Shown: positions 2,083-16,007 of the stretch, in pieces
How the letters are laid out: each line of letters begins with the position of its first letter
How positions within the stretch are numbered: position 1 is the stretch's first letter
DNA from: a virus
Length of the DNA stretch: 64,000 nt
Virus record (IMG/VR): IMGVR_UViG_3300025132_007932
Location: 1-64,000 of that record
Direction: 5' to 3' (one strand)
Notes under the pieces: model-generated
The model's database searches: none
Seen by the model: only the letters and a program-made list of their open reading frames with translations
Told to the model about the DNA's origin: nothing
Made by a program: the position numbers and the translations under genes

Positions 2083-3135
2083 ATGGCGCACAAATTTTTA
2101 TATATCTTGCTATGTTTTTTGACCGTATTGGGCTGCAGTCCCGATTATAGTATTGTTACCGGTAAAACAGAGACCATCATAAAAACTGAAACCGTGGTAG
2201 AAACAGAAACGGTAACCGAAGAGGTTGAGATACCTGTTTATATAGAAGTCGAAGTTCCGGTATATATTGACACCGGGTTTGATGATCCTGGTTTAGTGTG
2301 GGTTGACTCTTTTACTCAACCAAATACTGTAGATGGTATTGACATTTTATGGGTTATTGATACTTCCGGCTCAATGCATAGATTTGATGCTCAGTTAATG
2401 GCCGGTATAGGTGTAATGTTGGGAGCATTGCCTCCCACTAGTTGGCGATTGGCTATGATATCAAATGATCCAATGCGTGCAGTTGCTGAAAATCAGTTTC
2501 CTTTAGTTCCGGGTGATGATGTTGTCGACGCCGAAGCAATGTATAGTGCGATGGGTCGGGGAGGTATGGAAAAGGGTTTTGATGCCGTATATGAGTATAT
2601 TATTAATAATTCATATTCTGGCACTTGGATGAGACCAGATGCGGGGCTTTTAGTGGTCTTTGTCTCCGATGAACAGGAGCAAAGTGACGATCACTTTTCT
2701 GATGAATATGATTTTATTAGTTGGTATGGTGGGCTTCGTGGTGGATCTGTATTTCTTGCTAGTATTGTAAATCAAGAACCAACCGAGTCATTATGTGACA
2801 GTTGGGTTAGTCCAATAGACGTGGGAACAAGATATATGGATGCCACAAATGCGTTTGCTGGCAATATTATCGATATTTGTGCAGACGATTGGACAGCCGG
2901 AGTTGCTGATGCTGCGGCTTCTATTGAGCCTCACGAAAAATGGGAACTTAAGCATCAGGCCATAACAGATTCTGTCAGAGTTTTTATGAACAGCGCACTA
3001 GTAGAACCTGGAATATCAACCTGGTCTTATTCGGAAACGGATAACACGGTTTATTTCCACACTATCCCGCCAGGAAGTACATTAGTAGAGATTGGATATA
3101 GGTATTACGAAGAGGAGGATGACACCGGTGCTTAA
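2083..3135 (+). CDS. lipoprotein with von Willebrand factor A (vWA) domain
   Basis: Lipobox LTVLG-C; MIDAS motif DILWVIDTSGSM; LVVFVSDE; T/E/V-rich stalk. Confidence 0.8.
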   Translation: MAHKFLYILLCFLTVLGCSPDYSIVTGKTETIIKTETVVETETVTEEVEIPVYIEVEVPVYIDTGFDDPGLVWVDSFTQPNTVDGIDILWVIDTSGSMHRFDAQLMAGIGVMLGALPPTSWRLAMISNDPMRAVAENQFPLVPGDDVVDAEAMYSAMGRGGMEKGFDAVYEYIINNSYSGTWMRPDAGLLVVFVSDEQEQSDDHFSDEYDFISWYGGLRGGSVFLASIVNQEPTESLCDSWVSPIDVGTRYMDATNAFAGNIIDICADDWTAGVADAAASIEPHEKWELKHQAITDSVRVFMNSALVEPGISTWSYSETDNTVYFHTIPPGSTLVEIGYRYYEEEDDTGA

Positions 3136-3862
3136 ATTATTTACAATCATTTTATTTTTATTAACAGGGGTATCGCATGCAAACGTGTCTGATTACGCAC
3201 CTTCTTTGCCTGTAGATCACATCGAAACGATAAATAGTTCAGTTGAAAAGAGAGTACGGTCAGCTGCTGTAAGAGTTACAGAACCTTTTTCTGGGGGCCA
3301 CGGATCTGGTTCCTACATAAAATACAAAGATGTTAATTTGGTATTTACAGCACAACATGTTGCAGATGGTATTTTAGGAGTAAAATATTTAGTTATACAC
3401 AAACAAGAGTCACATATAGGTACGCTCATATATTCAGACAAAGCAAATGATATAGCTATACTATATTTAGGAACACCGTTCAGAACAATTGAACCAATGA
3501 AATATGAACCTCTAGACAAAGTTGCCAGCGTTGGAACAAATATAATATATTCAGGATACCCTTCATCTCACAAACTTATGTCATTTAGTGGTAGAGTTGC
3601 TGGCTACGCTGATGGGCCGGGTATTGGTAATCATATAATACTTCAAACATACGGCTGGTTTGGGTGTTCGGGTTCTGTAATTTATGATACAAAAGGGCGC
3701 CAAGTGGGTATATTATATGGCGTAGACGTTGAGTACTATCCAGATATGCAAGTTCAAGAAAACATGATTTGGGTGGCGCCAATAACAAAAGTCAATATAG
3801 ACAGGGCCCTTAGAAATTTTTGTAGGGGGTATCAAGGAAAAGATCCCAAAGCTTGTAAATGA
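3128..3862 (+). CDS. secreted trypsin-like (S1) serine protease
   Basis: Signal peptide; catalytic triad motifs TAQHV, DIAIL, GCSGS; start reassigned to GTG 3128 after AGGAGG. Confidence 0.85.
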   Translation: MLKLFTIILFLLTGVSHANVSDYAPSLPVDHIETINSSVEKRVRSAAVRVTEPFSGGHGSGSYIKYKDVNLVFTAQHVADGILGVKYLVIHKQESHIGTLIYSDKANDIAILYLGTPFRTIEPMKYEPLDKVASVGTNIIYSGYPSSHKLMSFSGRVAGYADGPGIGNHIILQTYGWFGCSGSVIYDTKGRQVGILYGVDVEYYPDMQVQENMIWVAPITKVNIDRALRNFCRGYQGKDPKACK

Positions 3863-4308
3863 AATATAAGTGGAATAAGTTTCTCACGGAAGGTGAGAAG
3901 AAAACAGTAGGAATTGTTGTTTGTCTTAATGATAAGCAACAATTTTTGATTTTAAGGCGTTCTAATATTGATGACAGAGCTGGTTCTTGGACAATACCAG
4001 GTGGACATATCGACGATAAAGATAATTCAATAGAAGCCGGCGCCGTTAGAGAGCTTGAAGAAGAGGCCGGCCTGTCTTGTAAATTAAGTGATTTAAAATA
4101 TCTCGGAGAGCCAAAGAAGGGAAAACACTATTTTTTGACTCAAAAGTGGGCTGGAGAAGTAAATGTCGATATCCCAAATCCAGAGACAGGTGAAATAGAG
4201 CATGATGCATACAAGTGGCTAACGATTAATGATATAAAAGACATAGAAGATACTGAAATTCCGATCTATTTATTGGAGAAAGCTTTGGAAATGTCTAAAA
4301 ATGAATGA
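3859..4308 (+). CDS. NUDIX hydrolase with N-terminal W-x-x-F-L-x-E tag
   Basis: Nudix box GGHIDDKDNSIEAGAVRELEEEAGL; N-terminus MKYKWNKFLTE. Confidence 0.9.
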   Translation: MKYKWNKFLTEGEKKTVGIVVCLNDKQQFLILRRSNIDDRAGSWTIPGGHIDDKDNSIEAGAVRELEEEAGLSCKLSDLKYLGEPKKGKHYFLTQKWAGEVNVDIPNPETGEIEHDAYKWLTINDIKDIEDTEIPIYLLEKALEMSKNE

Positions 4309-5347
4309 TTTATATGATAATCTTGACGAAAAAAAGAAAAAAGCCGGCTCTGAGTCAAGCAAAGAGTCTTCCCTAAGAGATTGGTTTGGAAGAAAGGGAG
4401 CTAAAGGCTCCAAAAAAGGCTGGGTTGACTGCAACGCACCCGACGGCAGCGGTGGCTATAAGTCTTGTGGTCGAGGATCCGGCGAAAGTCGTAAAAAATA
4501 TCCCGCTTGTCGGCCGACACCTGGTGCCTGTAAAGAAAGAGGCAGAGGAAAGTCGTGGGGAAAAAAAGGAAAATCTAAAAAAAATGAGGAATTACAAATG
4601 AATTTAGAAAAAATTGTTCGTGAAGAACTTGAAGCAGTTTTTCTAGAGTCTCACTCGAAAGAAGATGAGAAAGAACTTAAAAAAATATCTAAAGAACTCC
4701 ACGGAGCTTCGAAAATGCATAAAGGGCAGGCAGACAGAATTGATAAAATTCTTGATAGCACTGAAGATGACGACTTAAAAGAAGAAAATGAAGTCGACGA
4801 AGGTATGAACTGTGGCTGTGGAAACGACCCTTGTAAAACTTATGGCAAGAATAATGAAAAAATTATTGTTACAATTAAAGAAGAATTAGAGGCTGTTCTT
4901 GACGAGAAGAAAAAGAAGAAAGCCAAGAAAGATGCTTGCTATAATAAAGTAAAATCACGCTATAAAGTGTGGCCTAGCGCATATGCCTCTGGTGCTTTAG
5001 TAAAATGTCGCAAGGTTGGCGCCGCGAATTGGGGTAATTCTAAGAAAGAGTCTCTACAAATCATGATTGAAGATGAATTAACTCAAGTTTTAGATGAAGA
5101 AAAGAAAAAACCTTGCAAACCCTCCAAAGGAAAGCGTTTTGCTAAGCGCGTAGACGGTAAATGTCGCTCATATGGGCAGAAAGGACAAGCAAAAGGCGGT
5201 GGAGACCGTATTAGACCTGGTACTGCAAAGGGCGATGCTTACTGCGCACGATCTGCAAAGATTAAAAAGTGTAAAAATCCCCCTTGTGCTAACGCATTAT
5301 CCCGCAAAAAGTGGAAATGCCGCGGCTCCAAGTCAATGAAAGAGTAA
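4301..5347 (+). CDS. modular basic/Cys-rich putative head polyprotein
   Basis: K/C-rich modules separated by three IxE(E/D)ELxxVxxE linkers. Confidence 0.65.
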   Translation: MNDLYDNLDEKKKKAGSESSKESSLRDWFGRKGAKGSKKGWVDCNAPDGSGGYKSCGRGSGESRKKYPACRPTPGACKERGRGKSWGKKGKSKKNEELQMNLEKIVREELEAVFLESHSKEDEKELKKISKELHGASKMHKGQADRIDKILDSTEDDDLKEENEVDEGMNCGCGNDPCKTYGKNNEKIIVTIKEELEAVLDEKKKKKAKKDACYNKVKSRYKVWPSAYASGALVKCRKVGAANWGNSKKESLQIMIEDELTQVLDEEKKKPCKPSKGKRFAKRVDGKCRSYGQKGQAKGGGDRIRPGTAKGDAYCARSAKIKKCKNPPCANALSRKKWKCRGSKSMKE

Positions 5348-5351
5348 ATAA

Positions 5352-7784
5352 ATGCTAAATGATGAGCAAATTCTATTAAAAACAGCCAATCTTCTGGATA
5401 CTTTGCAAGAAAAGTGCTGGGATGGATATAAACAAGTCGGAATGAAGAAGAAAAGTGGCAAAAATGTGCCAAATTGTGTCCCTGTTAATGAAAAAGTGCT
5501 CCGAGAAGTAACCGAAGACGAGATGCGAGTGCTTGAAGACGTGTTGGACGACCTAAATCCAGCAAATTTACCCTTAAATGACCTTTTTAGCAACAAAATG
5601 CGCGTTGTTATACCGTTTCCGACCACTGATCCAAGTTCAGATCTTGGAAAGTTCTCAGAATTCTTCAGATCTCAAGAGTATGATGTAGATTGGGAGAAAG
5701 GGATGGTGTATGCCGAGCGTGATCTGCGCACATCAGACGATTTTCTTGATACTTTAATGGGTGGATCTGAACCAAAGAAGAAAACTAAGAAGATTCAGAT
5801 GAAAATCGGCAAGCTTTTCTCCAAATTGGCTGATTTAAGCAAAAGAAAAGACGAAATATACCAAAAAGTCTATAAACACATGGATAATGCCAACTATAAG
5901 CTAGCAGATGGTGGACCAGTTAACACACCACGAAGAGTTACCGGAAAAATGCTGAAAGCAGCGCTCGATGAAAAAGAATACGAGAATTTTCAGAGAATTA
6001 ACACTCAAATTAACTTATATGTCGTAAATCCGGGTGTCGCAGGCCCAGCAGGCTATGATTTAACCGATTTAGCCACTAAATACGGCGAATATTGGAAAAA
6101 GAACGCTGGATTCATCAAAAAAGAGATAAATAGCCTTGATAATGACAAATATTCCATTATTATCACTCGACATCCAATAGATGTACTCAGAATGAGTGAT
6201 TTTGACACAATTACTTCTTGTCATTCTCCAGCTAGTCGTCAAAATGCCTATCAATCCTACTATAAATGCGCTGTAGCCGAGGCTCAGGGCCATGGAGCCG
6301 TAGCATACGTGGTTGAGACAGAAGACCTTCTGAGCGCCACTGATACGGGTAATATTGATAGTGCAGAGCAAGAAATTCAAGAAGGCGAGATATTTGCTGA
6401 CGATAAACGTCCATTTAGCGGTGATATTGAGCCAATTTCTCGCACACGCATCCGTCATGTTAGATATTATGAAGGTGACGAGCCTCCAAAGCGTTGGGAT
6501 GATGGACAAGACGTTGGAATGCCCGAAAAGCGCGTCTATGGTGTCGATATTCCCGGTTTAACTAATAGAGTTACTGATTGGGCGAGATCAAACCAAGAAG
6601 AAGTCATAGCAAATATGCCTAAAAATGATAATGGCATTATTGATCTTAATAAATTTATGATTTTTGGTGGCTCTTACGAAGATACTGCAAATGCTGCTGG
6701 TCGTGAAAGATTAATGAGACAGTTATTGGGTGCACAAGCTCTCGTTAGCGGCAATATGAAACAAAACACAGACACTGAAGATGATCTGGATGCTAATTTA
6801 GTTGGCGACATTATCGCACAATACGAAGGGCAGTGCGAAGAGATAATGAATGAGTACAATAATAGGATGGCTCAAACATATTCTGACTATGAAGTTGGAG
6901 ATGATGGTGGTGAGGGTGCTTATATCAGACCCTTCGCAGCATTTATTGCGAAGTGGCCGGTTGATGAGTGGAAAAGACTACCCGGTAATCAAGAAGAAGT
7001 TGTGTGGAACTCTGTCGATGAGGTGATTGCGATATATGGTGATATATTTGAAGACTCCAACAACTATACACCTGTTATTCGTCGTGTTCGCGAAGAAATA
7101 CACTTGACTATGAAGATTAACTTTGAGCATCCTGACATTTATGGTAACGGTTATATGGCAATGCCAGAAGAATACAGAGACGCGCTTGAAAACATTGATG
7201 TAATAATCGACGACAGAAGAGATGCTTTTGAGGCTGTTCTCACTGATTACTTCAAGCGTGAAGGACAAATGGAAGGTGGTACATATATGAATCTTGCTAT
7301 GTCCATCGAAGACGGAGCACTTACCTCATATGAATGGGATCTAGAAACTGATGGAGAATACTCTGAATCATATGAATCGTCTGCACGATATACACACTAC
7401 TATGATCCAGAAGACTTAGGATTGGGGATTGAGGTGCTAAAACAGATTGTTGATTCTCGCGACTTTAGAATTGAATTGAGAAAACAACTTTTAGAAGCGC
7501 CAAGAAAAGAAATAAATACTCAATATTATTTATCTATGAATGCAATAACAGTAGACCAGAGCGGAGAGGTCGCATTTACCGCTGTATTCACGATTAACGC
7601 TGATGAGCCTGACCTTATGGCTGAGTTGTTTCAAGAGCTTGTAGAGGGTGAAATGGACGATGAAGATAACCTTAATGTGATATTTAATAGAGTATTAGCT
7701 CAGTTTGTTAATTCTCGCCGGCCATCGCATATGCAAACAAACGAAAACCTCGTAAAAACGTGGAAAGGATTTCTAAACTCATGA
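5352..7784 (+). CDS. large hypothetical protein (810 aa), putative virion-internal
   Basis: N-terminal CWDGYKQVGMKKK...VPNCVP module flanked by LQE/LRE; central RHPIDVLRMS...SCH; C-terminal LVKTWKGFLNS. Confidence 0.65.
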   Translation: MLNDEQILLKTANLLDTLQEKCWDGYKQVGMKKKSGKNVPNCVPVNEKVLREVTEDEMRVLEDVLDDLNPANLPLNDLFSNKMRVVIPFPTTDPSSDLGKFSEFFRSQEYDVDWEKGMVYAERDLRTSDDFLDTLMGGSEPKKKTKKIQMKIGKLFSKLADLSKRKDEIYQKVYKHMDNANYKLADGGPVNTPRRVTGKMLKAALDEKEYENFQRINTQINLYVVNPGVAGPAGYDLTDLATKYGEYWKKNAGFIKKEINSLDNDKYSIIITRHPIDVLRMSDFDTITSCHSPASRQNAYQSYYKCAVAEAQGHGAVAYVVETEDLLSATDTGNIDSAEQEIQEGEIFADDKRPFSGDIEPISRTRIRHVRYYEGDEPPKRWDDGQDVGMPEKRVYGVDIPGLTNRVTDWARSNQEEVIANMPKNDNGIIDLNKFMIFGGSYEDTANAAGRERLMRQLLGAQALVSGNMKQNTDTEDDLDANLVGDIIAQYEGQCEEIMNEYNNRMAQTYSDYEVGDDGGEGAYIRPFAAFIAKWPVDEWKRLPGNQEEVVWNSVDEVIAIYGDIFEDSNNYTPVIRRVREEIHLTMKINFEHPDIYGNGYMAMPEEYRDALENIDVIIDDRRDAFEAVLTDYFKREGQMEGGTYMNLAMSIEDGALTSYEWDLETDGEYSESYESSARYTHYYDPEDLGLGIEVLKQIVDSRDFRIELRKQLLEAPRKEINTQYYLSMNAITVDQSGEVAFTAVFTINADEPDLMAELFQELVEGEMDDEDNLNVIFNRVLAQFVNSRRPSHMQTNENLVKTWKGFLNS

Positions 7785-8023
7785 GCAAGTATTTGCAAGA
7801 TCCCGAGTATCTTTTTAGTATTGTTACAATGCTTGTAAAAAAGAACGGCGGCAAAATCACAATCACAGAAGAAGAAATGAAAAACGTATCTAAAGGAGAT
7901 TTAATTGGAATGTATTATGAGCCTGAGACAGGAAATCTAATACTCAAAGAGGTTGAGCCTGAAGATATGTTAAAAGCTACTTCAATGGTAAGAGATGATG
8001 TTGACAGAGACTATGATAATTAA
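7781..8023 (+). CDS. hypothetical protein
   Basis: ATGA overlap with upstream stop; 80 aa. Confidence 0.55.
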   Translation: MSKYLQDPEYLFSIVTMLVKKNGGKITITEEEMKNVSKGDLIGMYYEPETGNLILKEVEPEDMLKATSMVRDDVDRDYDN

Positions 8024-8146
8024 ATGGAGCTAATTATAATCGGATTTGCTTGCTTAAGTCTAGCTGCTTTTATAAGTACCAAAGATTTACCGGATGATAA
8101 ACCGGCAGAGGCAGAATCTGTACAAATAAAGGAGGAGTCAGAATGA
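8024..8146 (+). CDS. small membrane protein (40 aa, not in ORF track)
   Basis: MELIIIGFACLSLAAFISTKDLPDDKPAEAESVQIKEESE; fills the gap and its stop overlaps the next ATG. Confidence 0.5.
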   Translation: MELIIIGFACLSLAAFISTKDLPDDKPAEAESVQIKEESE

Positions 8147-8385
8147 AATACATTTTAATATTTTTACTATCGAGTGTTGCATATGCAAACGACGAGGAGG
8201 AGCCTCGCGTTGTTTATAAACAAAAAACTGAAATTGATTTTGAAAGTGTAGAGGTACAAGGAGAATTGGTCAAACCACAAGGATCTTTGTTGTTGGAAAG
8301 AAAAAGAGCACAATTTAATTCAATGGTCTGGATAAGATCTGACTTTGACGATGAGATGGACAAAACTGTTCAAGAGGTTAAATAA
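8143..8385 (+). CDS. cglF: CglF/GltF-like (adventurous gliding motility) secreted protein
   Basis: Signal peptide, then VVYKQKTEIDFESVEVQGELVKPQG...FNSMVWIRSDFDDEM, matching my recollection of the myxobacterial CglF pattern (KTxIDF..V.GEL.KP.G...F..LI..R.NF..E). Confidence 0.7.
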   Translation: MKYILIFLLSSVAYANDEEEPRVVYKQKTEIDFESVEVQGELVKPQGSLLLERKRAQFNSMVWIRSDFDDEMDKTVQEVK

Positions 8386-8738
8386 TGTTTCCTTTATTTT
8401 TTGAAAACAGTAAAATTCCAGTATGGTTATCTAAGCTGGCTCCAATTGAAATAAATGCGCTAAGTTTTTTTATTTTTGTTTTCTCGCGAGGAGAATTAGA
8501 TGAAAGAGTAAGAAGACATGAAACGATTCACTACAAACAGCAAGTTGAAATGTTGTTTATTTTTCAATGGATTATGTATGCTTATTTTCATTTAAACGGG
8601 CTGCTTTCGGGACTTAGCGGTTCTGACGCTTACTATGTTAATCCTTTTGAGCTTGAGGCATATGATAATGACGAAAAAGAAAACTATTTAAATGAAAGAA
8701 AAGCATATGCTTGGATAAAATACTGGAAAGAAATGTGA
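8385..8738 (+). CDS. HExxH zincin-like membrane-associated protein
   Basis: RRHETIH...NPFELEAY. Confidence 0.65.
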   Translation: MFPLFFENSKIPVWLSKLAPIEINALSFFIFVFSRGELDERVRRHETIHYKQQVEMLFIFQWIMYAYFHLNGLLSGLSGSDAYYVNPFELEAYDNDEKENYLNERKAYAWIKYWKEM

Positions 8739-9760
8739 AACTAATACTTGAAAATTGGCGCCAATATGTAGCTGAGAGCGAACAAGCATCTCACTATGGT
8801 GATTTGTATTTGTTTGAAAATGATACAGTCACTAAAACATCTTTTTATGATGCTCTCAATACTTTATCTGAATCAAATGGCGCCGTCGATACATTTTTAG
8901 AAAACTGGGAAAAATCTGTTGACCACCAATTACAAAATTTAAATGAACAAGAATTTAGTCCACTTTTTAAATTAGCAACCCAAGCTTGGATGATACAAAA
9001 CAAATTTAAAGAGAAAGCGGCCGAAAAGGTTATTGCTGTCAGCAAAAAGATTAATGATTTTTCTGAAAAGAATCCAAAGACTGTAAAGGTAGCCAAAGTA
9101 GTTGTGGGTGGATTACTTGCTGCGGCCGCTGTTTATTATATTTATAAAGTTGTTGATAAGGGCGGTGATGCATCCGATGTTATGGAGTTGGCCCAGTCAT
9201 TACAACCAGAAGATCCCGATTTAGCTCGGGAAGTAGCTGAATGTGCACAAGAGTTTAGTCCAGAAAAGATAGCAGAGTTCGCGCAAGAGCAACAAGGTGT
9301 TGTTGATAAAGTAGCAGACACACTTTCGGCCGCTGGTGAACCTGCGCTAGATCAAATGGGGCAAGCAGCAGAAGCAGTTTCTGATGATATGACACAAGAA
9401 GTGTCTGGTTTAGATCGTTGGGCGGAGATGTTTGATTCTGGTGAGTTTGGGAAAGCAACAGATGCGCCCGAACTGACAGATAAAGAAGCTAGAGATACTT
9501 GGGATCAGCTCACGGGCCAAAAAGATTTTGCTAATGATCCATCATATAAGCCGGGTGGTGGAGATAAAGGATTAGACGATTGGGCCAAAATTTGGGATAA
9601 AGAATATGGCCCAGGGGAAGATCCAGTAGCTAGACCCTCAAGAGTTCCACAAACCCCAGACGAGGCGGCTGCATGGGAAGATCTTATTGCACAAGACCGG
9701 GCTGATAGCATGCCTAAAACAAAGCCTAGAAAATGGCCATTTAAGAAGTTTAGTAAATGA
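8735..9760 (+). CDS. tagged putative head-cargo/ejection protein
   Basis: Start reassigned to GTG 8735 (MKLILENWRQYVAE); one hydrophobic helix; acidic W-containing repeats in the C-terminus. Confidence 0.65.
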   Translation: MKLILENWRQYVAESEQASHYGDLYLFENDTVTKTSFYDALNTLSESNGAVDTFLENWEKSVDHQLQNLNEQEFSPLFKLATQAWMIQNKFKEKAAEKVIAVSKKINDFSEKNPKTVKVAKVVVGGLLAAAAVYYIYKVVDKGGDASDVMELAQSLQPEDPDLAREVAECAQEFSPEKIAEFAQEQQGVVDKVADTLSAAGEPALDQMGQAAEAVSDDMTQEVSGLDRWAEMFDSGEFGKATDAPELTDKEARDTWDQLTGQKDFANDPSYKPGGGDKGLDDWAKIWDKEYGPGEDPVARPSRVPQTPDEAAAWEDLIAQDRADSMPKTKPRKWPFKKFSK

Positions 9761-10449
9761 AACTCCTACTTGAAAATTGGCGAGGGTATTTAAGCGAGCA
9801 GAGGTCTGCCGAAAATCTTGTAGAAGAAATTTGGGCAGGTAATTATGTTACTGAAATACTCATAATAGAAGAGCAACAGAGATTGCTTGACGAGAGTATT
9901 GGATCGTTTTTTAGTAATTCTTTTAACTCAGTAAAAAAACAGATACAAAGTTTCAACGATTGGAAGGATAACCAGTTGATGTCCTTTGTTGACGCGTCAC
10001 TAAAAAAATTACAAAGCTTTTTTTCCAGCATGCGAACAATTGCAGTAAAAACAAAAAACAATATTCTTTTAAAACTATTTCCAAAATATAGATCCAGGCA
10101 AATAGTTCAAGCTTTTGGAGTGTTGAGAAGTCCAAAATACTTAAAAGCTGGTGCGGCGATATTAGCGATAGTTTTGCAAAAACTAGTTGAACTTGGAGCT
10201 AAAGCTATATTAGATACCATGTCTGGGGGAGTTGCTAGTGCAGCAAAAATTGCTGCCTTTGTACAACAAAATTTAGAAAAAATAAAGCTATTAATTCAAA
10301 CAGTTGTTACTGCGTTGGATCCGAGCGGTATTTTATCAATGTTAAAGGATGTGGCAGAATCTCAAGGCTGGTTACAAACTTTGATTGATTTAAGAAGTGA
10401 TTTAAAAAACCCTTTCAAGGGTTTTGAAAAAGGCATTGCTAGCGCGTGA
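9757..10449 (+). CDS. tagged putative head-cargo protein, amphipathic helical
   Basis: N-terminus MKLLLENWRGYLSE; A/L/G-rich hydrophobic helices. Confidence 0.65.
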   Translation: MKLLLENWRGYLSEQRSAENLVEEIWAGNYVTEILIIEEQQRLLDESIGSFFSNSFNSVKKQIQSFNDWKDNQLMSFVDASLKKLQSFFSSMRTIAVKTKNNILLKLFPKYRSRQIVQAFGVLRSPKYLKAGAAILAIVLQKLVELGAKAILDTMSGGVASAAKIAAFVQQNLEKIKLLIQTVVTALDPSGILSMLKDVAESQGWLQTLIDLRSDLKNPFKGFEKGIASA

Positions 10450-11132
10450 AACTCCTACTTGAAAATTGGCGAAAGTTTATCGCGGAAAATTATGAGCCCG
10501 TAACTACTCTGCGTATTTTTGATTTTGATGAGACAATAGCACACACCGAATCAGAAACACGTGTCACGGCGCCGGATGGTTCAACTGCCACATTGCGAGA
10601 TCAAAAAGAATTTGAGGAATACATGAACGCAGCTGCAGAAAAAGAAGGTATAGATTCTTTCGATGCAGTTGATGGATTAATTAATGCTGGATACAAGATA
10701 GACCTCAGTGACTTTTCTATTGTAAAAAATCCTCTTGAGATTAAATTAGTCACGGACGTACTAAGAAACTTTTCAGAAAATTCTAGAACCTATATTTTAA
10801 CAGCTCGAAGAGGCAAGTCTCTTGGACCAATTTTAGACTACCTTGATGAAATAGGAATTGATTCATCTAAAATTAGACCGATTGCAACCGCAGGAGAATC
10901 GAAGGGCGATGTTATGGTAAAAATGTTAAGTAATAAAATTATGCCTGATGGAAAATCAAACATCAATCGTATTGAATATTACGAAGATTCTCAAAAAAAT
11001 ATTGATGATGTGCTGACAAAAGTTTGCGATAATCCCGAAATAAATGACGTTAAACCATTAGATTTTGAGTTGGTCATAAACAAAGTCATTAATAATGGTG
11101 GTCAGTATACTGTTGAGAAGATTAAATGCTAG
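10446..11132 (+). CDS. HAD-superfamily phosphatase with N-terminal tag
   Basis: Motif I IFDFDET, motif II ILTAR, motif IV YYEDS; N-terminus MKLLLENWRKFIAE. Confidence 0.8.
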   Translation: MKLLLENWRKFIAENYEPVTTLRIFDFDETIAHTESETRVTAPDGSTATLRDQKEFEEYMNAAAEKEGIDSFDAVDGLINAGYKIDLSDFSIVKNPLEIKLVTDVLRNFSENSRTYILTARRGKSLGPILDYLDEIGIDSSKIRPIATAGESKGDVMVKMLSNKIMPDGKSNINRIEYYEDSQKNIDDVLTKVCDNPEINDVKPLDFELVINKVINNGGQYTVEKIKC

Positions 11133-11167
11133 TCTGATAACTAATTAAGAGAGTTGGAGGGCGAATT

Positions 11168-11491
11168 ATGGCACCTAGTGAAAATGGATGGAATGAATAC
11201 TCTAGACTTGTTTTAGAGCAACTTGAATCATTATCAATCGGCATTGATGCATTGAGAGATGAGCTACAAGATATAAAGCAAGAAATGACTTTAATGAAAG
11301 CAAAAGAAGATCGTGTTATTGATTTAAAAAATTGGAAAGAACGTATTGATGAGGTCGCATCGCCGCCGCAACTTAAAAACGCTTTAAAAGAAATAGAAGA
11401 TTTGAAAATATTCAAAACAAAAGCGATAACTATTTTTATGATAGCACAAGCTTTAACTGGCTTTATTTTAGCTTATGCTCATATAATTTAA
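11168..11491 (+). CDS. coiled-coil protein with C-terminal TM helix
   Basis: Heptad pattern then a hydrophobic C-terminus; GGAGG SD. Confidence 0.6.
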   Translation: MAPSENGWNEYSRLVLEQLESLSIGIDALRDELQDIKQEMTLMKAKEDRVIDLKNWKERIDEVASPPQLKNALKEIEDLKIFKTKAITIFMIAQALTGFILAYAHII

Positions 11492-11492
11492 T

Positions 11493-11521
11493 TTGCATTT
11501 TTTTGTAAAATATGTTATAAG
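11493..11521 (+). promoter_or_regulatory. sigma70-like promoter
   Basis: TTGCAT-N17-TATAAG with TG extension, 5 nt before ATG 11527. Confidence 0.45.
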
Positions 11522-11526
11522 TTATT

Positions 11527-11802
11527 ATGAAAAATTATAAAATAGGAGATTTAGTAGGATTTAAATGGCCCGGTCACAATAAACATTTGCGGGTGGGAAT
11601 AATTTTGCAAAATTCTAAGAAAAAGTTTATTGTTAAGTGGTTCTGGTATGATAAAAACTTCTATTTGGAGAACCAGTTTAGTGAAGCCAAAAAATTGAAT
11701 AAAAAATATATCACCAGTATTGTTGAATATACTAAAAAAAGTGACGATATTTGCATAGAAATATTGAGTGATGCAAATTCTAGTTACTTATATGGCACCT
11801 AA
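11527..11802 (+). CDS. small SH3/KOW-like beta-barrel protein
   Basis: YKIGDLVGF...VGIIL...FIVKW. Confidence 0.55.
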   Translation: MKNYKIGDLVGFKWPGHNKHLRVGIILQNSKKKFIVKWFWYDKNFYLENQFSEAKKLNKKYITSIVEYTKKSDDICIEILSDANSSYLYGT

Positions 11803-12082
11803 ACCGTTAGACATAGATGAAATTAAAAGAATAATTAGGCAAATTTCTGGTAAGCTAGAACCAGATGATGGCCCATTGATTGTTCCCTGTATAATTGTAG
11901 GAAAAGGACATATTTGGTGCTATAATCCGAGAAACAGAGATATGGTAAGAATTCTCAGAGGAACGAAAGTGTTTATTGTTGACAGCAGGGTTGATTCAGA
12001 AAATAGAGTCATGATCTATGCAGAGACTGGAGAGATTGCCTTAATTGAACAAGATGAACTTTTAGTGTTAGGATTTAATTAA
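11792..12082 (+). CDS. hypothetical protein
   Basis: ATG 11792 lies 5 nt after CTAGTTA. Confidence 0.55.
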   Translation: MAPKPLDIDEIKRIIRQISGKLEPDDGPLIVPCIIVGKGHIWCYNPRNRDMVRILRGTKVFIVDSRVDSENRVMIYAETGEIALIEQDELLVLGFN

Positions 12083-12222
12083 TGTTATTTGCTTTTGATA
12101 ATATTTGGAAAACTATTTTAATTTTGGGTGGCGCCTGGGCTATTTATGGGTTGTGTGGATATGAATTCACGGTAATTACTTTATTGGCTGCCTTGTTATC
12201 CCGTGCACTTGTTTGTCGCTAG
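12082..12222 (+). CDS. small membrane protein (46 aa, not in ORF track)
   Basis: MLFAFDNIWKTILILGGAWAIYGLCGYEFTVITLLAALLSRALVCR; TAATG overlap with upstream stop. Confidence 0.5.
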   Translation: MLFAFDNIWKTILILGGAWAIYGLCGYEFTVITLLAALLSRALVCR

Positions 12223-12235
12223 CTTTAATTATAAT

Positions 12236-12499
12236 ATGGAAAAAGAATTAAGTTTTGGAGAATTAGCCGCTCAAGATCTAAATCCCGGAGATATTGTCGA
12301 ATGGCAAACTTGGGACAGTAGAGACAGCGCTTGGGAATCAAATTACGGAATAATTATTGAGATAAAAAACCAGATCAAATCTAATCGCATGATTTCGGTT
12401 TCAAAAGTTATGCCACTAAGCGGACCAAAAATTGAATTAGAGTTTTTTACAATGAGTTTAAAGCTTGTTTCTAAGTCAGATAAAAGTCATCTGACGTAA
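12236..12499 (+). CDS. small SH3/KOW-like beta-barrel protein
   Basis: LNPGDIVEW...YGIIIE. Confidence 0.55.
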   Translation: MEKELSFGELAAQDLNPGDIVEWQTWDSRDSAWESNYGIIIEIKNQIKSNRMISVSKVMPLSGPKIELEFFTMSLKLVSKSDKSHLT

Positions 12500-12541
12500 A
12501 TGAACATTCAATACTATTTATTGCATTGACTTGGAATTCAT

Positions 12542-13657
12542 ATGATTGATACATTGATGCCATTAATAAAACAGTTTATGCCTTTTGCAAAAAAACGTAT
12601 GGGATTTGCGGATCCTCCCAGATTGTTTTTAAAAGGAGATTCCAATAATGCTAAAAATCCTTTGGGAAAAACAGCTTTTTACGATCCGGAGCAAAAGTCA
12701 ATTACGGTATATACTACTGGCCGGCATCCAAAAGACGTTATGAGGTCCTTATCTCACGAATTAGTTCATCACAAACAGAATTGTGATGGCAAATTCGAAA
12801 ACGTTGGAGAAATGGGCGAGGGATACGCTCAGAGTGATGAACATTTGAGAGAAATGGAGCGCGAAGCTTACGAAATAGGCAATATGTGCTTTCGTGATTG
12901 GGAAGACAGCATAAAGAGTACTATTTACTTTGAACATCTACAAAAGGGAGAAAAAAAGATGTCTATAAAAGATTGGAAAAATAACGAATTAAACAAACTT
13001 CTTAACGAAGCTTGGGGTTTTAAATTTAACACCCTACAAGAATTTGAAGAATTTGACGGCGCTGGAGAAGTGCAGGAGGAAGCCGAAGTTCAAGAAGAAG
13101 CTGAAAAGCCGGACTACATTGATATTGATGGTGACGGCGACAAGGAAGAGTCAATGAAAAAGGCTGCGGCAGACAAGAAAGAGAAGAAAGGTGTGGATGA
13201 AGGTGCTTTTTCACCAAACCACTACTGTGTACACCATGGTGGTGTGGAAAGAAACGGCCAGATTGAAATGGCAGAAGCAGTCGGACACAACTATGATCAA
13301 GAGCTTGGAAAAGTCACGCACTATGATATGAAGTTTGAAGACGGAACAATTTCGGAAGGGGTACCCTACGATAGCATTCAAGTCACTAACGCTTCATTAG
13401 CAGAAGCCCACAGCCACTCTATGGCAAAAAGAGATGATGACGAGGATGATAAGGAAGATCTTGATGAATCACCTTCGCACCCTGCGGAAGATAGGGAAGG
13501 TGCACGTGCAACCGGTCGTAGAATAAAGAAAGGAACTGGTGAGCGCGTAGAGGAAATTATCAGCAATTCTAACTTGAGTGACAAGCAAATCAAGGAAGCT
13601 TTGATGAAGGCTATTAAAATAGTTAAGGAAAGAAAAGCAAATGGGCAGGAAAAGTAA
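12542..13657 (+). CDS. zincin (HExxH) domain fused to an acidic modular region
   Basis: SLSHELVHHKQ...EREAYE; acidic C-half with LNE/LQE/LAE/LDE sites; in-frame internal ATG 12959. Confidence 0.7.
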   Translation: MIDTLMPLIKQFMPFAKKRMGFADPPRLFLKGDSNNAKNPLGKTAFYDPEQKSITVYTTGRHPKDVMRSLSHELVHHKQNCDGKFENVGEMGEGYAQSDEHLREMEREAYEIGNMCFRDWEDSIKSTIYFEHLQKGEKKMSIKDWKNNELNKLLNEAWGFKFNTLQEFEEFDGAGEVQEEAEVQEEAEKPDYIDIDGDGDKEESMKKAAADKKEKKGVDEGAFSPNHYCVHHGGVERNGQIEMAEAVGHNYDQELGKVTHYDMKFEDGTISEGVPYDSIQVTNASLAEAHSHSMAKRDDDEDDKEDLDESPSHPAEDREGARATGRRIKKGTGERVEEIISNSNLSDKQIKEALMKAIKIVKERKANGQEK

Positions 13658-13743
13658 AAGTTGAGACTCGAATCGAACTCAAAAAACTTAAACAAAAATT
13701 TATTTTGGACTTATTATGGCTTCAACAAATGGAGGGCGCACAA

Positions 13744-13995
13744 GTGTCTTTAGAAAAAAACTGGCAAGATTTTCTCTATGAGAGTTTAGATGAAAAGACT
13801 ATTTTTACTTATATTCAAGGTCTCGAAGAAATTATTTCCAATCTCAAACCACGAACCGTGACTGAGAAAAGAAGAATGTCTTTAGCTAAACAACACTTAA
13901 GAGAAGTGAAGAGATATGCTAGGCGTATGCAAGGCGATATGCGAGTCTTACAAGAAAAACTTAGTATTCTAGAAGAGTCTAAGGGAGACGAGTAA
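13744..13995 (+). CDS. small helical protein with W-x-x-F-L-x-E tag
   Basis: GGAGG SD then GTG 13744: MSLEKNWQDFLYE. Confidence 0.55.
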   Translation: MSLEKNWQDFLYESLDEKTIFTYIQGLEEIISNLKPRTVTEKRRMSLAKQHLREVKRYARRMQGDMRVLQEKLSILEESKGDE

Positions 13996-16007
13996 TGGGC
14001 GGTGCAGCAGGCCACATGAATCACCCTTTTGATTTAGGGTGGGTTAACAGCGGTAATGATTTGATAGATTTTTTTGGAAGAGCAAAAACGTTTGTTGAAA
14101 AAAAAGGTGCTGGCGCCGTAAAAATTGACGGCGTCAATGTGTCTTTCAAAGTTGTTGGAGACGAAGAAACAAAACAATTTGCAGTAGATAGAGGGTCTTT
14201 GAAGCCAATCGACATTGAAGGTATAACAATGGCCCGAGTTGATGACAGATTTCCGGAAGGACACGGAATGCGGCCGGCAATTAGAACGCTACTAACAATT
14301 TTAAATACAGCTCTTCCATCAATAAAAAATGAATTACAAGAATTGGGGATGCTTGATAATCCTTCAATGTTTCTAAATACCGAGTATGTTGCCGGTACAA
14401 CGAATGTAACTCAATATGATGAAAACTTCTTAGCTATCCATGGACTAAATCAATTTTATCACAAGGTTCACAGTCGAACAGGTCAAGAGAGACCTGGAGC
14501 AGAACGCCCAGAAGGAGTAAAAGCTCCAAGCGTTGAAGTTCCTTTTGATCCGCTAGTGATGGAAAAACTAATTTCGAAATTAAATGTAGTCGCAAATGAA
14601 TACGGATTTGAAGTATATGGTTCTGTACCAACAGAGAGGCTACAAGATTCAGACATAGATTTTGAACGTACCCTTAGTGAACCATTGACAATAAGAGTGT
14701 CAGATGACCGTGAGATTACCAAATCATTAAGAGAATGGCTATCAGAGGCCTCTAATCCGCGTTATAAGAGCGTTAAGCTCAAAAATGGTAAGAAGACCCA
14801 CCCACTACATAAAGAGCTTTACAAAGCGATTCTAGACGGTTCTGTGCCAATTGTGGAATTAATCGAAGATTCTGATGCAGAAGCTGCAATATATGGTGCT
14901 ATCATGATGCACGCAACTCGTATGTTAGGAAATGATGTTCTCAAAGGATTAACCAGTCCAATGGGTAATGTGATGGACCACGAAGGCGTTGTTTTGCGTG
15001 ATGAAAAATTATTTGGCCCAAATCCAGTAAAAATTACCGGTGAGTTTATTCTCGGTGGAATGGGATCCGCTTTCCAAGCGGACACGTCACTAAACGAAGA
15101 GGACGATGAAATAGAGATAGAGGACGAGGATGCTGATCCTGTTGGCCCTTCAAAAGTTATTGCTGTTGTTCCTGGTGCATTCAAGCCACCTCACAAGGGA
15201 CACCTTGCGATGGTTGAAGAATATGCCTCGCAAGCAGATGAAGTTACTGTATTGATATCTGCCCCACTAAAATCTTCTCGCAAATTACCAAATGGTCGCG
15301 AGATAACGAGTGGTGATTCCAAAAGAGTGTGGGAGTTGCTAACTAGACAGCTTCCAAACGTAGATGTGCAAGTATCTGGGCATGCATCACCTATTACAGC
15401 CACATACGAATTCATAGGAAAGGATGGTCCGGTTGAGCCCGGTACAGAAGTAATACTTGGAGTTAGCACCAAGGGAGGGGACGCAGCAAGGTTTAAAGAA
15501 GCTGCTAAATATGTCAAGGATGGAGTTCTGTTGCGTGATTTATCTAGCGCTGCTGTACAACCAGTTGCACATTCTTCCCAATATATGGGATTATTAAATG
15601 TGTCTCCTCTGAAAGATGATATGCCAAGTGTTAAATCAGGCAAGAACCCTTTAGCATTCCACGCCTCTGATATGAGATATCTTCTCGGTAAAGCCGATGA
15701 AGATGAGGAAGCGATTGAGTTGCTTGAAGACTTTGTTGGCGAAGCCAACATATTTGATTTGCTCTCAATATTTGATATTGATAGTGGAATGAATGAAATC
15801 TCTTCAATGGCATCCGGCGCCGTCCAGGGCGCTATGGTCGGTTCTGATGGAACTTCTTGGAATTCAGACGCGACAAAGAAATTTAATAAAAAACAAAAAG
15901 AAATAAGCAAGCTTACTGGCAAGAATCTTGCTATAAAAGAAAATGTTGACATAAGCACGATAGATGATGTTATGAGACTAATTATGGAAAAAGGAATTAT
16001 GAGATGA
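13995..16007 (+). CDS. ligase-like covalent nucleotidyltransferase domain fused to HxGH (cytidylyltransferase-like) domain
   Basis: KIDG (motif I), EGVVLR (motif IV), PVKITG (motif V); acidic LNE linker; PGAFKPPHKGH and HASDMR. Confidence 0.7.
   Translation: MGGAAGHMNHPFDLGWVNSGNDLIDFFGRAKTFVEKKGAGAVKIDGVNVSFKVVGDEETKQFAVDRGSLKPIDIEGITMARVDDRFPEGHGMRPAIRTLLTILNTALPSIKNELQELGMLDNPSMFLNTEYVAGTTNVTQYDENFLAIHGLNQFYHKVHSRTGQERPGAERPEGVKAPSVEVPFDPLVMEKLISKLNVVANEYGFEVYGSVPTERLQDSDIDFERTLSEPLTIRVSDDREITKSLREWLSEASNPRYKSVKLKNGKKTHPLHKELYKAILDGSVPIVELIEDSDAEAAIYGAIMMHATRMLGNDVLKGLTSPMGNVMDHEGVVLRDEKLFGPNPVKITGEFILGGMGSAFQADTSLNEEDDEIEIEDEDADPVGPSKVIAVVPGAFKPPHKGHLAMVEEYASQADEVTVLISAPLKSSRKLPNGREITSGDSKRVWELLTRQLPNVDVQVSGHASPITATYEFIGKDGPVEPGTEVILGVSTKGGDAARFKEAAKYVKDGVLLRDLSSAAVQPVAHSSQYMGLLNVSPLKDDMPSVKSGKNPLAFHASDMRYLLGKADEDEEAIELLEDFVGEANIFDLLSIFDIDSGMNEISSMASGAVQGAMVGSDGTSWNSDATKKFNKKQKEISKLTGKNLAIKENVDISTIDDVMRLIMEKGIMR

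Follow-up and report, generated by a model that had tools for sequence, protein, structure and literature searches.

The repeat and the three cassette genes

The window analysed here is the whole stretch of 64,000 nucleotides (nt) corresponding to positions 1 to 64,000 of the IMG/VR virus record IMGVR_UViG_3300025132_007932. On its plus strand, three tandem genes open with copies of one short coding repeat, which gives each of them the same kind of N-terminal leader, indicated below as the tag; the tagged genes are referred to as cassettes, and the protein bodies behind the tags as cargo. The 26-nt repeat, RTGAAACTMMTACTTGAAAATTGGCG, is found in exactly three copies in the window, at 8735, 9757 and 10446, and not once in 100 dinucleotide-preserving shuffles of it. 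The near-identity of the three gene starts, pointed out in a preliminary description of this DNA, was confirmed by sequence reading and alignment: over 27 nt, the copy at 10446 shares 26 positions with that at 9757 and 24 with that at 8735.

The three open reading frames (ORFs) start with (V)KLILENWRQYVAE, MKLLLENWRGYLSE and (V)KLLLENWRKFIAE, the start codon being GTG in the first and the last, ATG in the middle one; the leaders are, in order, KLILENWRQYVAE, KLLLENWRGYLSE and KLLLENWRKFIAE. Tag copy 1 (8735–8776, with the 26-nt repeat at 8735–8760) consists of the GTG start and 13 further codons, translated as (M)KLILENWRQYVAE; copy 2, MKLLLENWRGYLSE, lies at 9757–9798, and copy 3, (M)KLLLENWRKFIAE, at 10446–10487. 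Each copy also supplies the stop of the preceding gene, as had been proposed: the TGA at nt 2–4 of the repeat (8736–8738, 9758–9760 and 10447–10449) ends, respectively, the untagged upstream gene, cassette 1 and cassette 2.

Behind the tags, the genes had been described as unrelated, and they do belong to three different cargo families (F6, F14 and F0). When the tag is removed, no similarity is found by BLASTP among the three bodies (best E 0.09 to 1.1), and their possible homology, considered in the same description, was not borne out. Cassette 1 (8735–9760) encodes an acidic protein of 341 amino acids (aa) of family F6, with an isoelectric point (pI) of 4.5, which is missing in the closest relative, L003, and in a contig from the metagenome run X3. 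Cassette 2 (9757–10449) encodes a basic protein of family F14 (230 aa, pI 9.6), a family found, in the sample, only in the window and in L003. Cassette 3 (10446–11132; 228 aa, family F0) encodes a HAD-fold protein, phosphatase/5'-nucleotidase-like, and is the conserved right-hand anchor of the array. The left border of the variable array is marked, in most relatives, by a conserved gene for an 80-aa exported protein (8143–8385, plus strand); it is followed in the window by the untagged upstream gene (8385–8738, plus strand), encoding a 117-aa protein assigned to phrog_15610, 'protease', whose stop falls inside tag copy 1. Neither Pfam nor PHROGs gave a match for F6, F14 and most other cargo families; in the protein atlas F6 and F14 fall only into unnamed viral clusters, at values below 0.85.

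The phage and its relatives

The contig to which the window belongs, as its opening 64 kb, is linear, 98,424 bp long, with 39.6% G+C, and rated 52% complete; its large genes all lie on one strand. The contig encodes PhoH, glycosyltransferases, a baseplate wedge protein, giant structural ORFs, a primase and a fused Mre11/Rad50-like nuclease. Genes for a capsid protein and a prohead protease were not found on this 98.4-kb, 52%-complete contig, and the head module must therefore sit in the missing half.

Relatives were gathered with the tagged HAD-like protein as query, which gave 12 related viral contigs. One of them, G001 (194,231 bp, rated complete), carries a Peptidase_S77/gp21 protease (E 4e-30), a gp23-family capsid protein (E 2e-60) and a T4-type (gp20-type) portal. 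The prohead protease is also present in the complete relatives G006, G007 and G008 (two with terminal repeats): Peptidase_S77/gp21 is found, in all, in four out of four complete relatives (E 4e-30 to 7e-35), as well as in G004. The closest cultured capsid proteins, all in partial alignments, are those of Flavobacterium phage immuto (44% identity), Microcystis phage Mel-JY01 (48%) and Rhodothermus phage RM378 (51%), a dissimilarity that places the phage on a distant marine branch of the T4-like group, as yet uncultured. The phage of the window is an uncultured marine T4-like myovirus with a genome of roughly 200 kb, of which the contig represents about half. Among 50,697 cultured-phage records, no match was found to the region or to its three proteins (blastn, tblastn), and the 45-nt tag region gave matches at chance level only; the HAD cargo has more than 600 homologues in ocean metagenomes.

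The tag peptide and its cargo

The scan for further tags and repeats, suggested in the preliminary description, was carried out on the contig and on a pooled set, made up of the window and of relatives retrieved through protein or pattern searches, 130 sources and 1.34 Mb in all. In the pooled set, 302 matches to the tag pattern were counted, in all but three cases (299/302) exactly three codons past a start codon. The 231 distinct tagged proteins fall into 97 BLASTP families, 67 of which are singletons, a figure to be read as an upper bound on the count of unrelated families. The exact 23-mer of the repeat is present in at least 117 viral contig stretches, with up to six copies per stretch among the matches listed.

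The leader consensus is M-K-L-L-L-E-N-W-R-x-[FY]-[LIV]-x-E, 14 residues long, where K2, L3-5, E6, N7, W8, R9, F/Y11, L/I/V12 and E14 are invariant or nearly so. W8 is found in 231 of the 231 proteins, F/Y11 in 224, L/I/V12 in 225 and E14 in 229. When the 98.4-kb contig was scanned in six frames with W..[FYW][LIVM].[ED], five of the 10 matches were N-terminal, all of them within 3859–13762; the N-terminal share is 9 out of 18 in the complete genome G001 and 11 out of 15 in G006. Complete genomes have about 9–11 tagged genes each, of which the head module accounts for two or three and the hotspot for most.

Distinct domains were confirmed for some of the tagged proteins: the HAD fold, NUDIX, protein kinase (L142:4697-5722, E 1e-7) and PGDYG (L006:7951-8403, E 1e-18); weak matches were found to ART-PolyVal (L108:2667-3347, E 0.002) and GNAT (L131:213-551, E 0.001). 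For the HAD cargo an AlphaFold model was obtained, with a predicted local distance difference test score (pLDDT) of 88.8, whose top structural matches are 5'-nucleotidase III and the Legionella phosphatase Ceg4; a profile search of the PDB with the HAD family gave weak matches only. D26, D28 and T30 are invariant in the family. In the model the tag forms a separate helix of low confidence (residues 2–15, pLDDT about 60), while the domain begins at residue 21.

The degenerate tags listed in the preliminary description are also present. A NUDIX hydrolase (3859–4308, plus strand) starts with the short variant MKYKWNKFLTE and is coupled by ATGA to a protease-like gene (3092–3862); in relatives, NUDIX genes keep a tag-like leader although the DNA differs. 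An 83-aa ORF with a GTG start (13744–13995, plus strand) begins (M)SLEKNWQDFLYE, is kept in all relatives sampled and abuts a gene for a 670-aa nucleotidyltransferase-like protein. Finally, the core of the tag, minus the final Glu, is found at the extreme C-terminus of an 810-aa protein (5352–7784), where LVKTWKGFLNS (7749–7781, plus strand) is followed by the stop. This C-terminal core is kept in 40 orthologues, with identity down to 31%; such conservation would be expected of a short binding motif, rather than of a by-product of the DNA.

Correspondence with the T4 capsid targeting sequence

The capsid targeting sequence (CTS) of T4 is MKTYQEFIAE, cut once by gp21 (PMC8442874). According to the account of Mullaney and Black (1996) given in PMC9026906, suppressor analysis assigns targeting mainly to residues 4 and 7, and processing to residues 8 and 10; when position 10 is Asp, cleavage is lost and targeting kept. 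W8, F/Y11, L/I/V12 and E14 of the tag have a spacing identical to that of Y4, F7, I8 and E10 in the T4 CTS; the equivalent residues in the short NUDIX variant are W5, F8, L9 and E11.

Tag-like N-termini are also found on ORFs flanking the protease gene in G001, G004, G006 and G007, where T4 has the core proteins gp67/68 and gp22. In G001 the leader is MSEMKVIIERWDRYINE upstream of the protease and VSSYKVIYEGWQRHLSE directly downstream of it; in G006 it is MKLLLEHWNRYLQE upstream and ...WRTFLNE downstream. The ORF downstream of the protease has ...SWKNYLVE in G007, and the one upstream has ...NGWRGYLLQ in G004.

The locus is probably an internal-protein locus, coding for virion cargo: an enlarged T4-style system in which the coding tag doubles as a cassette joint. 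A signal of the T4 kind, 'dock on core, cut after Glu', is the most economical reading of the tag, and a likely one. The 14-residue leader would work like the T4 CTS: the aromatic pair W8 and F/Y11 would dock the cargo onto the scaffolding core during prohead assembly, the gp21-family prohead protease would cut after E14 by way of the [LIV]-x-E motif, and the mature cargo would remain in the head and enter the host along with the DNA. It is in this sense, for docking as well as for cleavage and injection, that we infer a function. Both parts of the interpretation in the preliminary description, capsid targeting and the recombination joint, withstood the tests run here and are supported in part. 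Capsid targeting has in its favour the presence of gp21-, gp23- and gp20-type genes in complete relatives, the match of the invariant residues to the T4 CTS and the tag-like N-termini around the protease; the cargo, mostly acidic, is unlike the basic internal proteins of T4.

Several points weigh against this reading. The cargo is mostly acidic (median pI 4.8, with 84% below 6), with a median length of 181 aa. The tag is longer than the T4 CTS, and K2, L3-5, E6, N7 and R9 are not explained by the T4 model. Leaders of 10–14 residues are too short for a significance test against the T4 CTS, and the correspondence is a positional one only. The head module, moreover, is not on the contig of the window, and its protease is deduced from relatives.

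The leader might instead be an address or interaction motif that leads away from the capsid interior, to a membrane, to the baseplate or tail, to some compartment of the phage or to a shared chaperone or partner, the likeness to the T4 CTS being convergent. Features that would suit this are several: the cargo is unlike T4 internal proteins in its charge, invariant residues lie outside the positions of the T4 CTS, and the C-terminal copy has no final Glu, hence no cleavage site. Such an address is nonetheless improbable, given that the [LIV]-x-E end fits the specificity of a gp21-type protease, that this protease is encoded in every complete relative, that tag-like leaders are found on ORFs directly flanking the protease and portal genes, and that the four positions functionally mapped in T4 are the ones invariant in the tag.

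The tag at the nucleotide level

There are no spacers between neighbouring cassettes, which overlap by 4 or 17 nt. Of 233 distinct contexts, 129 have the stop of the upstream gene at nt 2–4 of the repeat (TGA) and 29 at a second TGA, at nt 15–17, which lies within CTTGAA, in the third frame; together, these account for 158 contexts (68%). In the others the upstream gene mostly ends within a few bases of the start codon. With its two TGAs, the repeat can close an upstream gene whichever of the other two frames it is read in.

Codon conservation in the tag was evaluated on nine HAD orthologues, found via their bodies and, as such, unbiased for tag DNA; codon counts from loci seeded by the exact 23-mer were set aside, because of ascertainment bias. 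At conserved residues, synonymous codon identity is 86% in tag codons 2–9, 76% in tag codons 10–14 and 48% in the gene body, where none of 212 eight-codon windows exceeds 68%. The tag includes rare codons: CTC, CTA and CGA represent 6%, 12% and 9% of their sets, respectively.

A structured RNA or hairpin at the junctions was ruled out: four of the five tested fold worse than their shuffles (z from +0.9 to +1.6), and the fifth like them (z -0.23). There is no enrichment of the T4 late-promoter motif TATAAATA (9 copies against 6.7 expected), and scans for sigma-70 promoters and terminators stay at background level.

Tag codon conservation raises the question of whether the selected unit is the nucleotide sequence itself, as a device for translational coupling and a recombination junction, providing a start and stops in two frames, with the peptide as a tolerated by-product. 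The excess of synonymous identity in codons 2–9, the rare codons, the 68% of upstream genes ending at the tag TGAs and a junction RNA less folded than shuffles, as an open initiation region would be, all point in this direction. This reading is quite unlikely: NUDIX, the 83-aa ORF and head-module ORFs keep W..[FY][LIV].E in quite different DNA, codons 10–14 vary while the residue pattern is kept, and the peptide core is also found at a protein C-terminus, where it has no start or stop role. That the three genes are diverged tandem paralogues, recognisable only at the N-terminus, would account for their tandem, same-strand arrangement and identical 5' ends, and can hardly be so, with bodies lacking similarity (E 0.09 or worse) and differing in length and charge, and a tag that heads 97 BLASTP families across relatives, including HAD, NUDIX, protein kinase and PGDYG.

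Cassette turnover

The array was compared with that of L003, an IMG/VR contig with 88–91% nt identity to the window. L003 aligns to the window up to position 8760 and again from 9758, with 25 L003 nt common to both alignments: window positions 8761–9757 are missing, and the junction, located within the repeat, joins the upstream side of copy 1 to the downstream side of copy 2. The same cassette is absent from run X3, an independent 2025 metagenome, where an 820-nt contig, about 97–98% identical to the window, joins 8735 to 9758, with 102 and 718 nt on either side, omitting exactly 1,022 nt; depth over the omitted gene is zero in this run. Among the sequencing runs listed for this DNA, none was of RNA. 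Metagenome joints with less than 30 nt on one side were disregarded as unreliable.

Family order, which the preliminary description proposed to compare, is not fixed: it differs in almost every contig, and between the 80-aa flank gene and the HAD gene one to four cassettes of different families are found across relatives. When pairs of tags are compared, one flank is homologous in 133 cases and both in 21, with homology stopping at the tag edges. Metagenome depth rises 5- to 50-fold over two tag bins (window 9705–9831 and 10340–10593), and in the metagenome runs many loose ends leave the tags on both sides, with low mutual agreement; the depth spikes and the disagreeing ends indicate that the tag has many different neighbours across the community. 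In these same two bins, the repeats are also where metagenome unitigs break. Assemblies of these phages from short reads will break up at the tag, and chimeric joins can arise.

No match to a tyrosine recombinase (PF00589) was found in the five genomes G000, G001, G006, G007 and G008. General recombination on the 26-nt patch is the simplest mechanism, and it is the one we infer for the exchange. In its second role, the repeat would be the cassette joint, carrying a start codon and TGA stops in both other frames. Being the only homology common to neighbouring cassettes, it would allow general recombination to add, remove or swap tag-plus-cargo units in frame.

Three points weigh against this reading. 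Tags differ as much within an array (8.68 differences) as between genomes (8.61; permutation p 0.8), those of the same cargo family being closer, and ongoing local gene conversion is therefore not evident. Selection acting on translation, or on the stop codons that overlap the tag, could equally account for its nucleotide conservation. In phages, moreover, mosaic boundaries often fall at gene starts in any case. As a pattern, the cassette-joint reading is well supported by the sequences compared; 'plug-and-play', the term used in the preliminary description, fits this pattern, with exchange at the repeat as a candidate mechanism. What stands of the proposed recombination joint is the loss of one cassette with its junction inside the repeat, in L003 and X3, and the variable order; homogenisation of the tags, or a dedicated recombinase in the five genomes, was not found.

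The constraint on tag nucleotides could derive from selection or from population-wide exchange. A stronger form of the joint, a coding repeat under nucleotide-level selection as a cassette-exchange site independent of a recombinase, may be entertained, with some doubt. Such a site would perhaps, again tentatively, combine five roles in one sequence: start codon, capsid address, protease site, two-frame stop and homology patch.

Comparison with known systems

The likeness to the T4 CTS includes a short and portable N-terminal leader on unrelated proteins, with an aromatic residue at P7 and P4, an aliphatic one at P3 and Glu at P1. The T4-type head genes come from relatives and not from the 52%-complete contig: the gp21-family protease from the four complete genomes and G004, the gp23-family capsid protein and the portal from G001. 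The differences are also several: the leader is 14 residues long, with an ENWR core, and is found in about 100 cargo families, as opposed to about 30 variants; the cargo is 100–450 aa long, mostly acidic, and includes enzyme folds; and a C-terminal version exists. IPI-III of T4 are described as highly basic (PMC8442874). The cargo here departs from the small, highly basic proteins typical of IPI-III, a property not needed for CTS function, the median pI being 4.8.

In the hypervariable internal-protein (IP) loci of T-even phages, the genes share only the CTS, and more than 30 IP variants are reported (Repoila et al. 1994, as cited in later papers; PMC2839356). Ip1-3 are injected inhibitors of GmrSD-type restriction enzymes (PMC3012670, PMC2839356, PMC12373910), and the shuffling of the IP genes has been ascribed to intergenic promoter/stem-loop elements (PMC2839356). 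As in these loci, close relatives differ here in what lies between the conserved flanks, nothing but the leader is common to the genes, and the region behaves as a hotspot of accessory genes; in contrast, intergenic spacers are absent and the only shared sequence is the coding tag, which also supplies the stops. On this comparison the system is probably of the same kind as the T-even internal-protein loci, in a distant lineage, with four differences: a different, longer leader, a much larger, mostly acidic, enzyme-bearing cargo set, a C-terminal variant, and a coding repeat as the only joint.

Cleavage after Glu, as proposed here, is also known for many proteins inside the heads of giant phages of the phiKZ-like and SPN3US-like types, where a distant gp21 homologue carries it out (PMC9026906); the ejection and inner-body proteins of these phages differ in having longer, non-uniform propeptides, with neither a common repeat-encoded leader nor a cassette array. 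Integron arrays, too, consist of tandem, promoter-less, single-gene cassettes of unrelated functions, with a repeated joint and presence/absence polymorphism. Here, however, no tyrosine recombinase is found in the five genomes, and the joint is coding, 26 nt long and unstructured, unlike the folded attC. No mention of an ENWR leader was found in the literature searched.

If the leader is a capsid address, the set of packaged, probably injected, proteins of an abundant uncultured ocean phage lineage can be read from sequence: each genome would contribute about ten, out of roughly a hundred families. The T4 internal-protein idea would, in that case, be widened from small inhibitors to enzymes. 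The cargo may be seen as a list of candidate effectors for host takeover and against host defences (HAD phosphatase, NUDIX, protein kinase, ART-like, GNAT-like and many unknowns), and the 14-residue tag as a natural candidate for loading foreign proteins into phage heads. A coding repeat bounding cassettes also offers a simple model for in-frame gene shuffling in phages; if the exchange-site reading is true, the phage population trades ready-to-package effector genes in frame, in a coding analogue of the integron.

Neighbouring genes and other leaders

Two protease-like genes of the window, at 3092–3862 (phrog_9683, E 5e-10) and 8385–8738 (phrog_15610, E 3e-20, with a HETIH motif), each lie directly upstream of a tagged gene and are stop/start-coupled to it; among the relatives compared, the second is found only in the window and in L003. 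At 13744–16007, the start of the gene for the 670-aa protein, untagged and with a cytidylyltransferase-like domain, shares one base with the tagged 83-aa ORF: the small protein might serve as an adaptor for the larger one. A HAD orthologue at L004:9941-10120 begins with a variant of the leader, MEPIFENWRKFVTQ, in which Gln replaces the final Glu; its frame is open upstream, and it may be an uncleaved or a fused form.

The proteins at the scaffold position share a C-terminal motif, (K/Q)LAGI(N/K), a few residues before the stop, which may be the capsid-binding end of the scaffold. It is found in G001 (172939-171560 and 181689-179725, both on the minus strand), where the ORFs at the scaffold position are of 654 and 459 aa, L152:5981-7051 and L151:9110-10144, and also in the cultured phage immuto (L153:10725-11966).

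A second recurrent leader or linker, (K)ITKxxLxxIIKEE[LI]xE, opens several small ORFs of G001, in the vicinity of its terminase and portal genes, and the ORF after the protease of G008. It resembles three IxEELxxVLxE linkers in a 348-aa Cys/Lys-rich protein of the window (4301–5347); the sites outside the window are at 193183, 192536, 190156 and 189073 in G001 (minus strand) and at L151:5969-6580. It may represent a further class of sites for cleavage, or targeting, of the gp21 type.

Leaders of the same type as the tag are also present in vB_FspM_immuto, the cultured Flavobacterium phage (L153, NC_055915.1), at 2730–4030, 8677–9759 and 10340–10567. Two adjacent ORFs before its terminase gene begin MADNFNLRSFLTENKLT and MENFDLKKFLVENKLT; an ORF before the protease has ...HFIAE, and one after it ...WQAKFLKE. 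The order of its head module is the same, and leaders on adjacent ORFs end in FLxE. Immuto is a possible bench model for such leaders.

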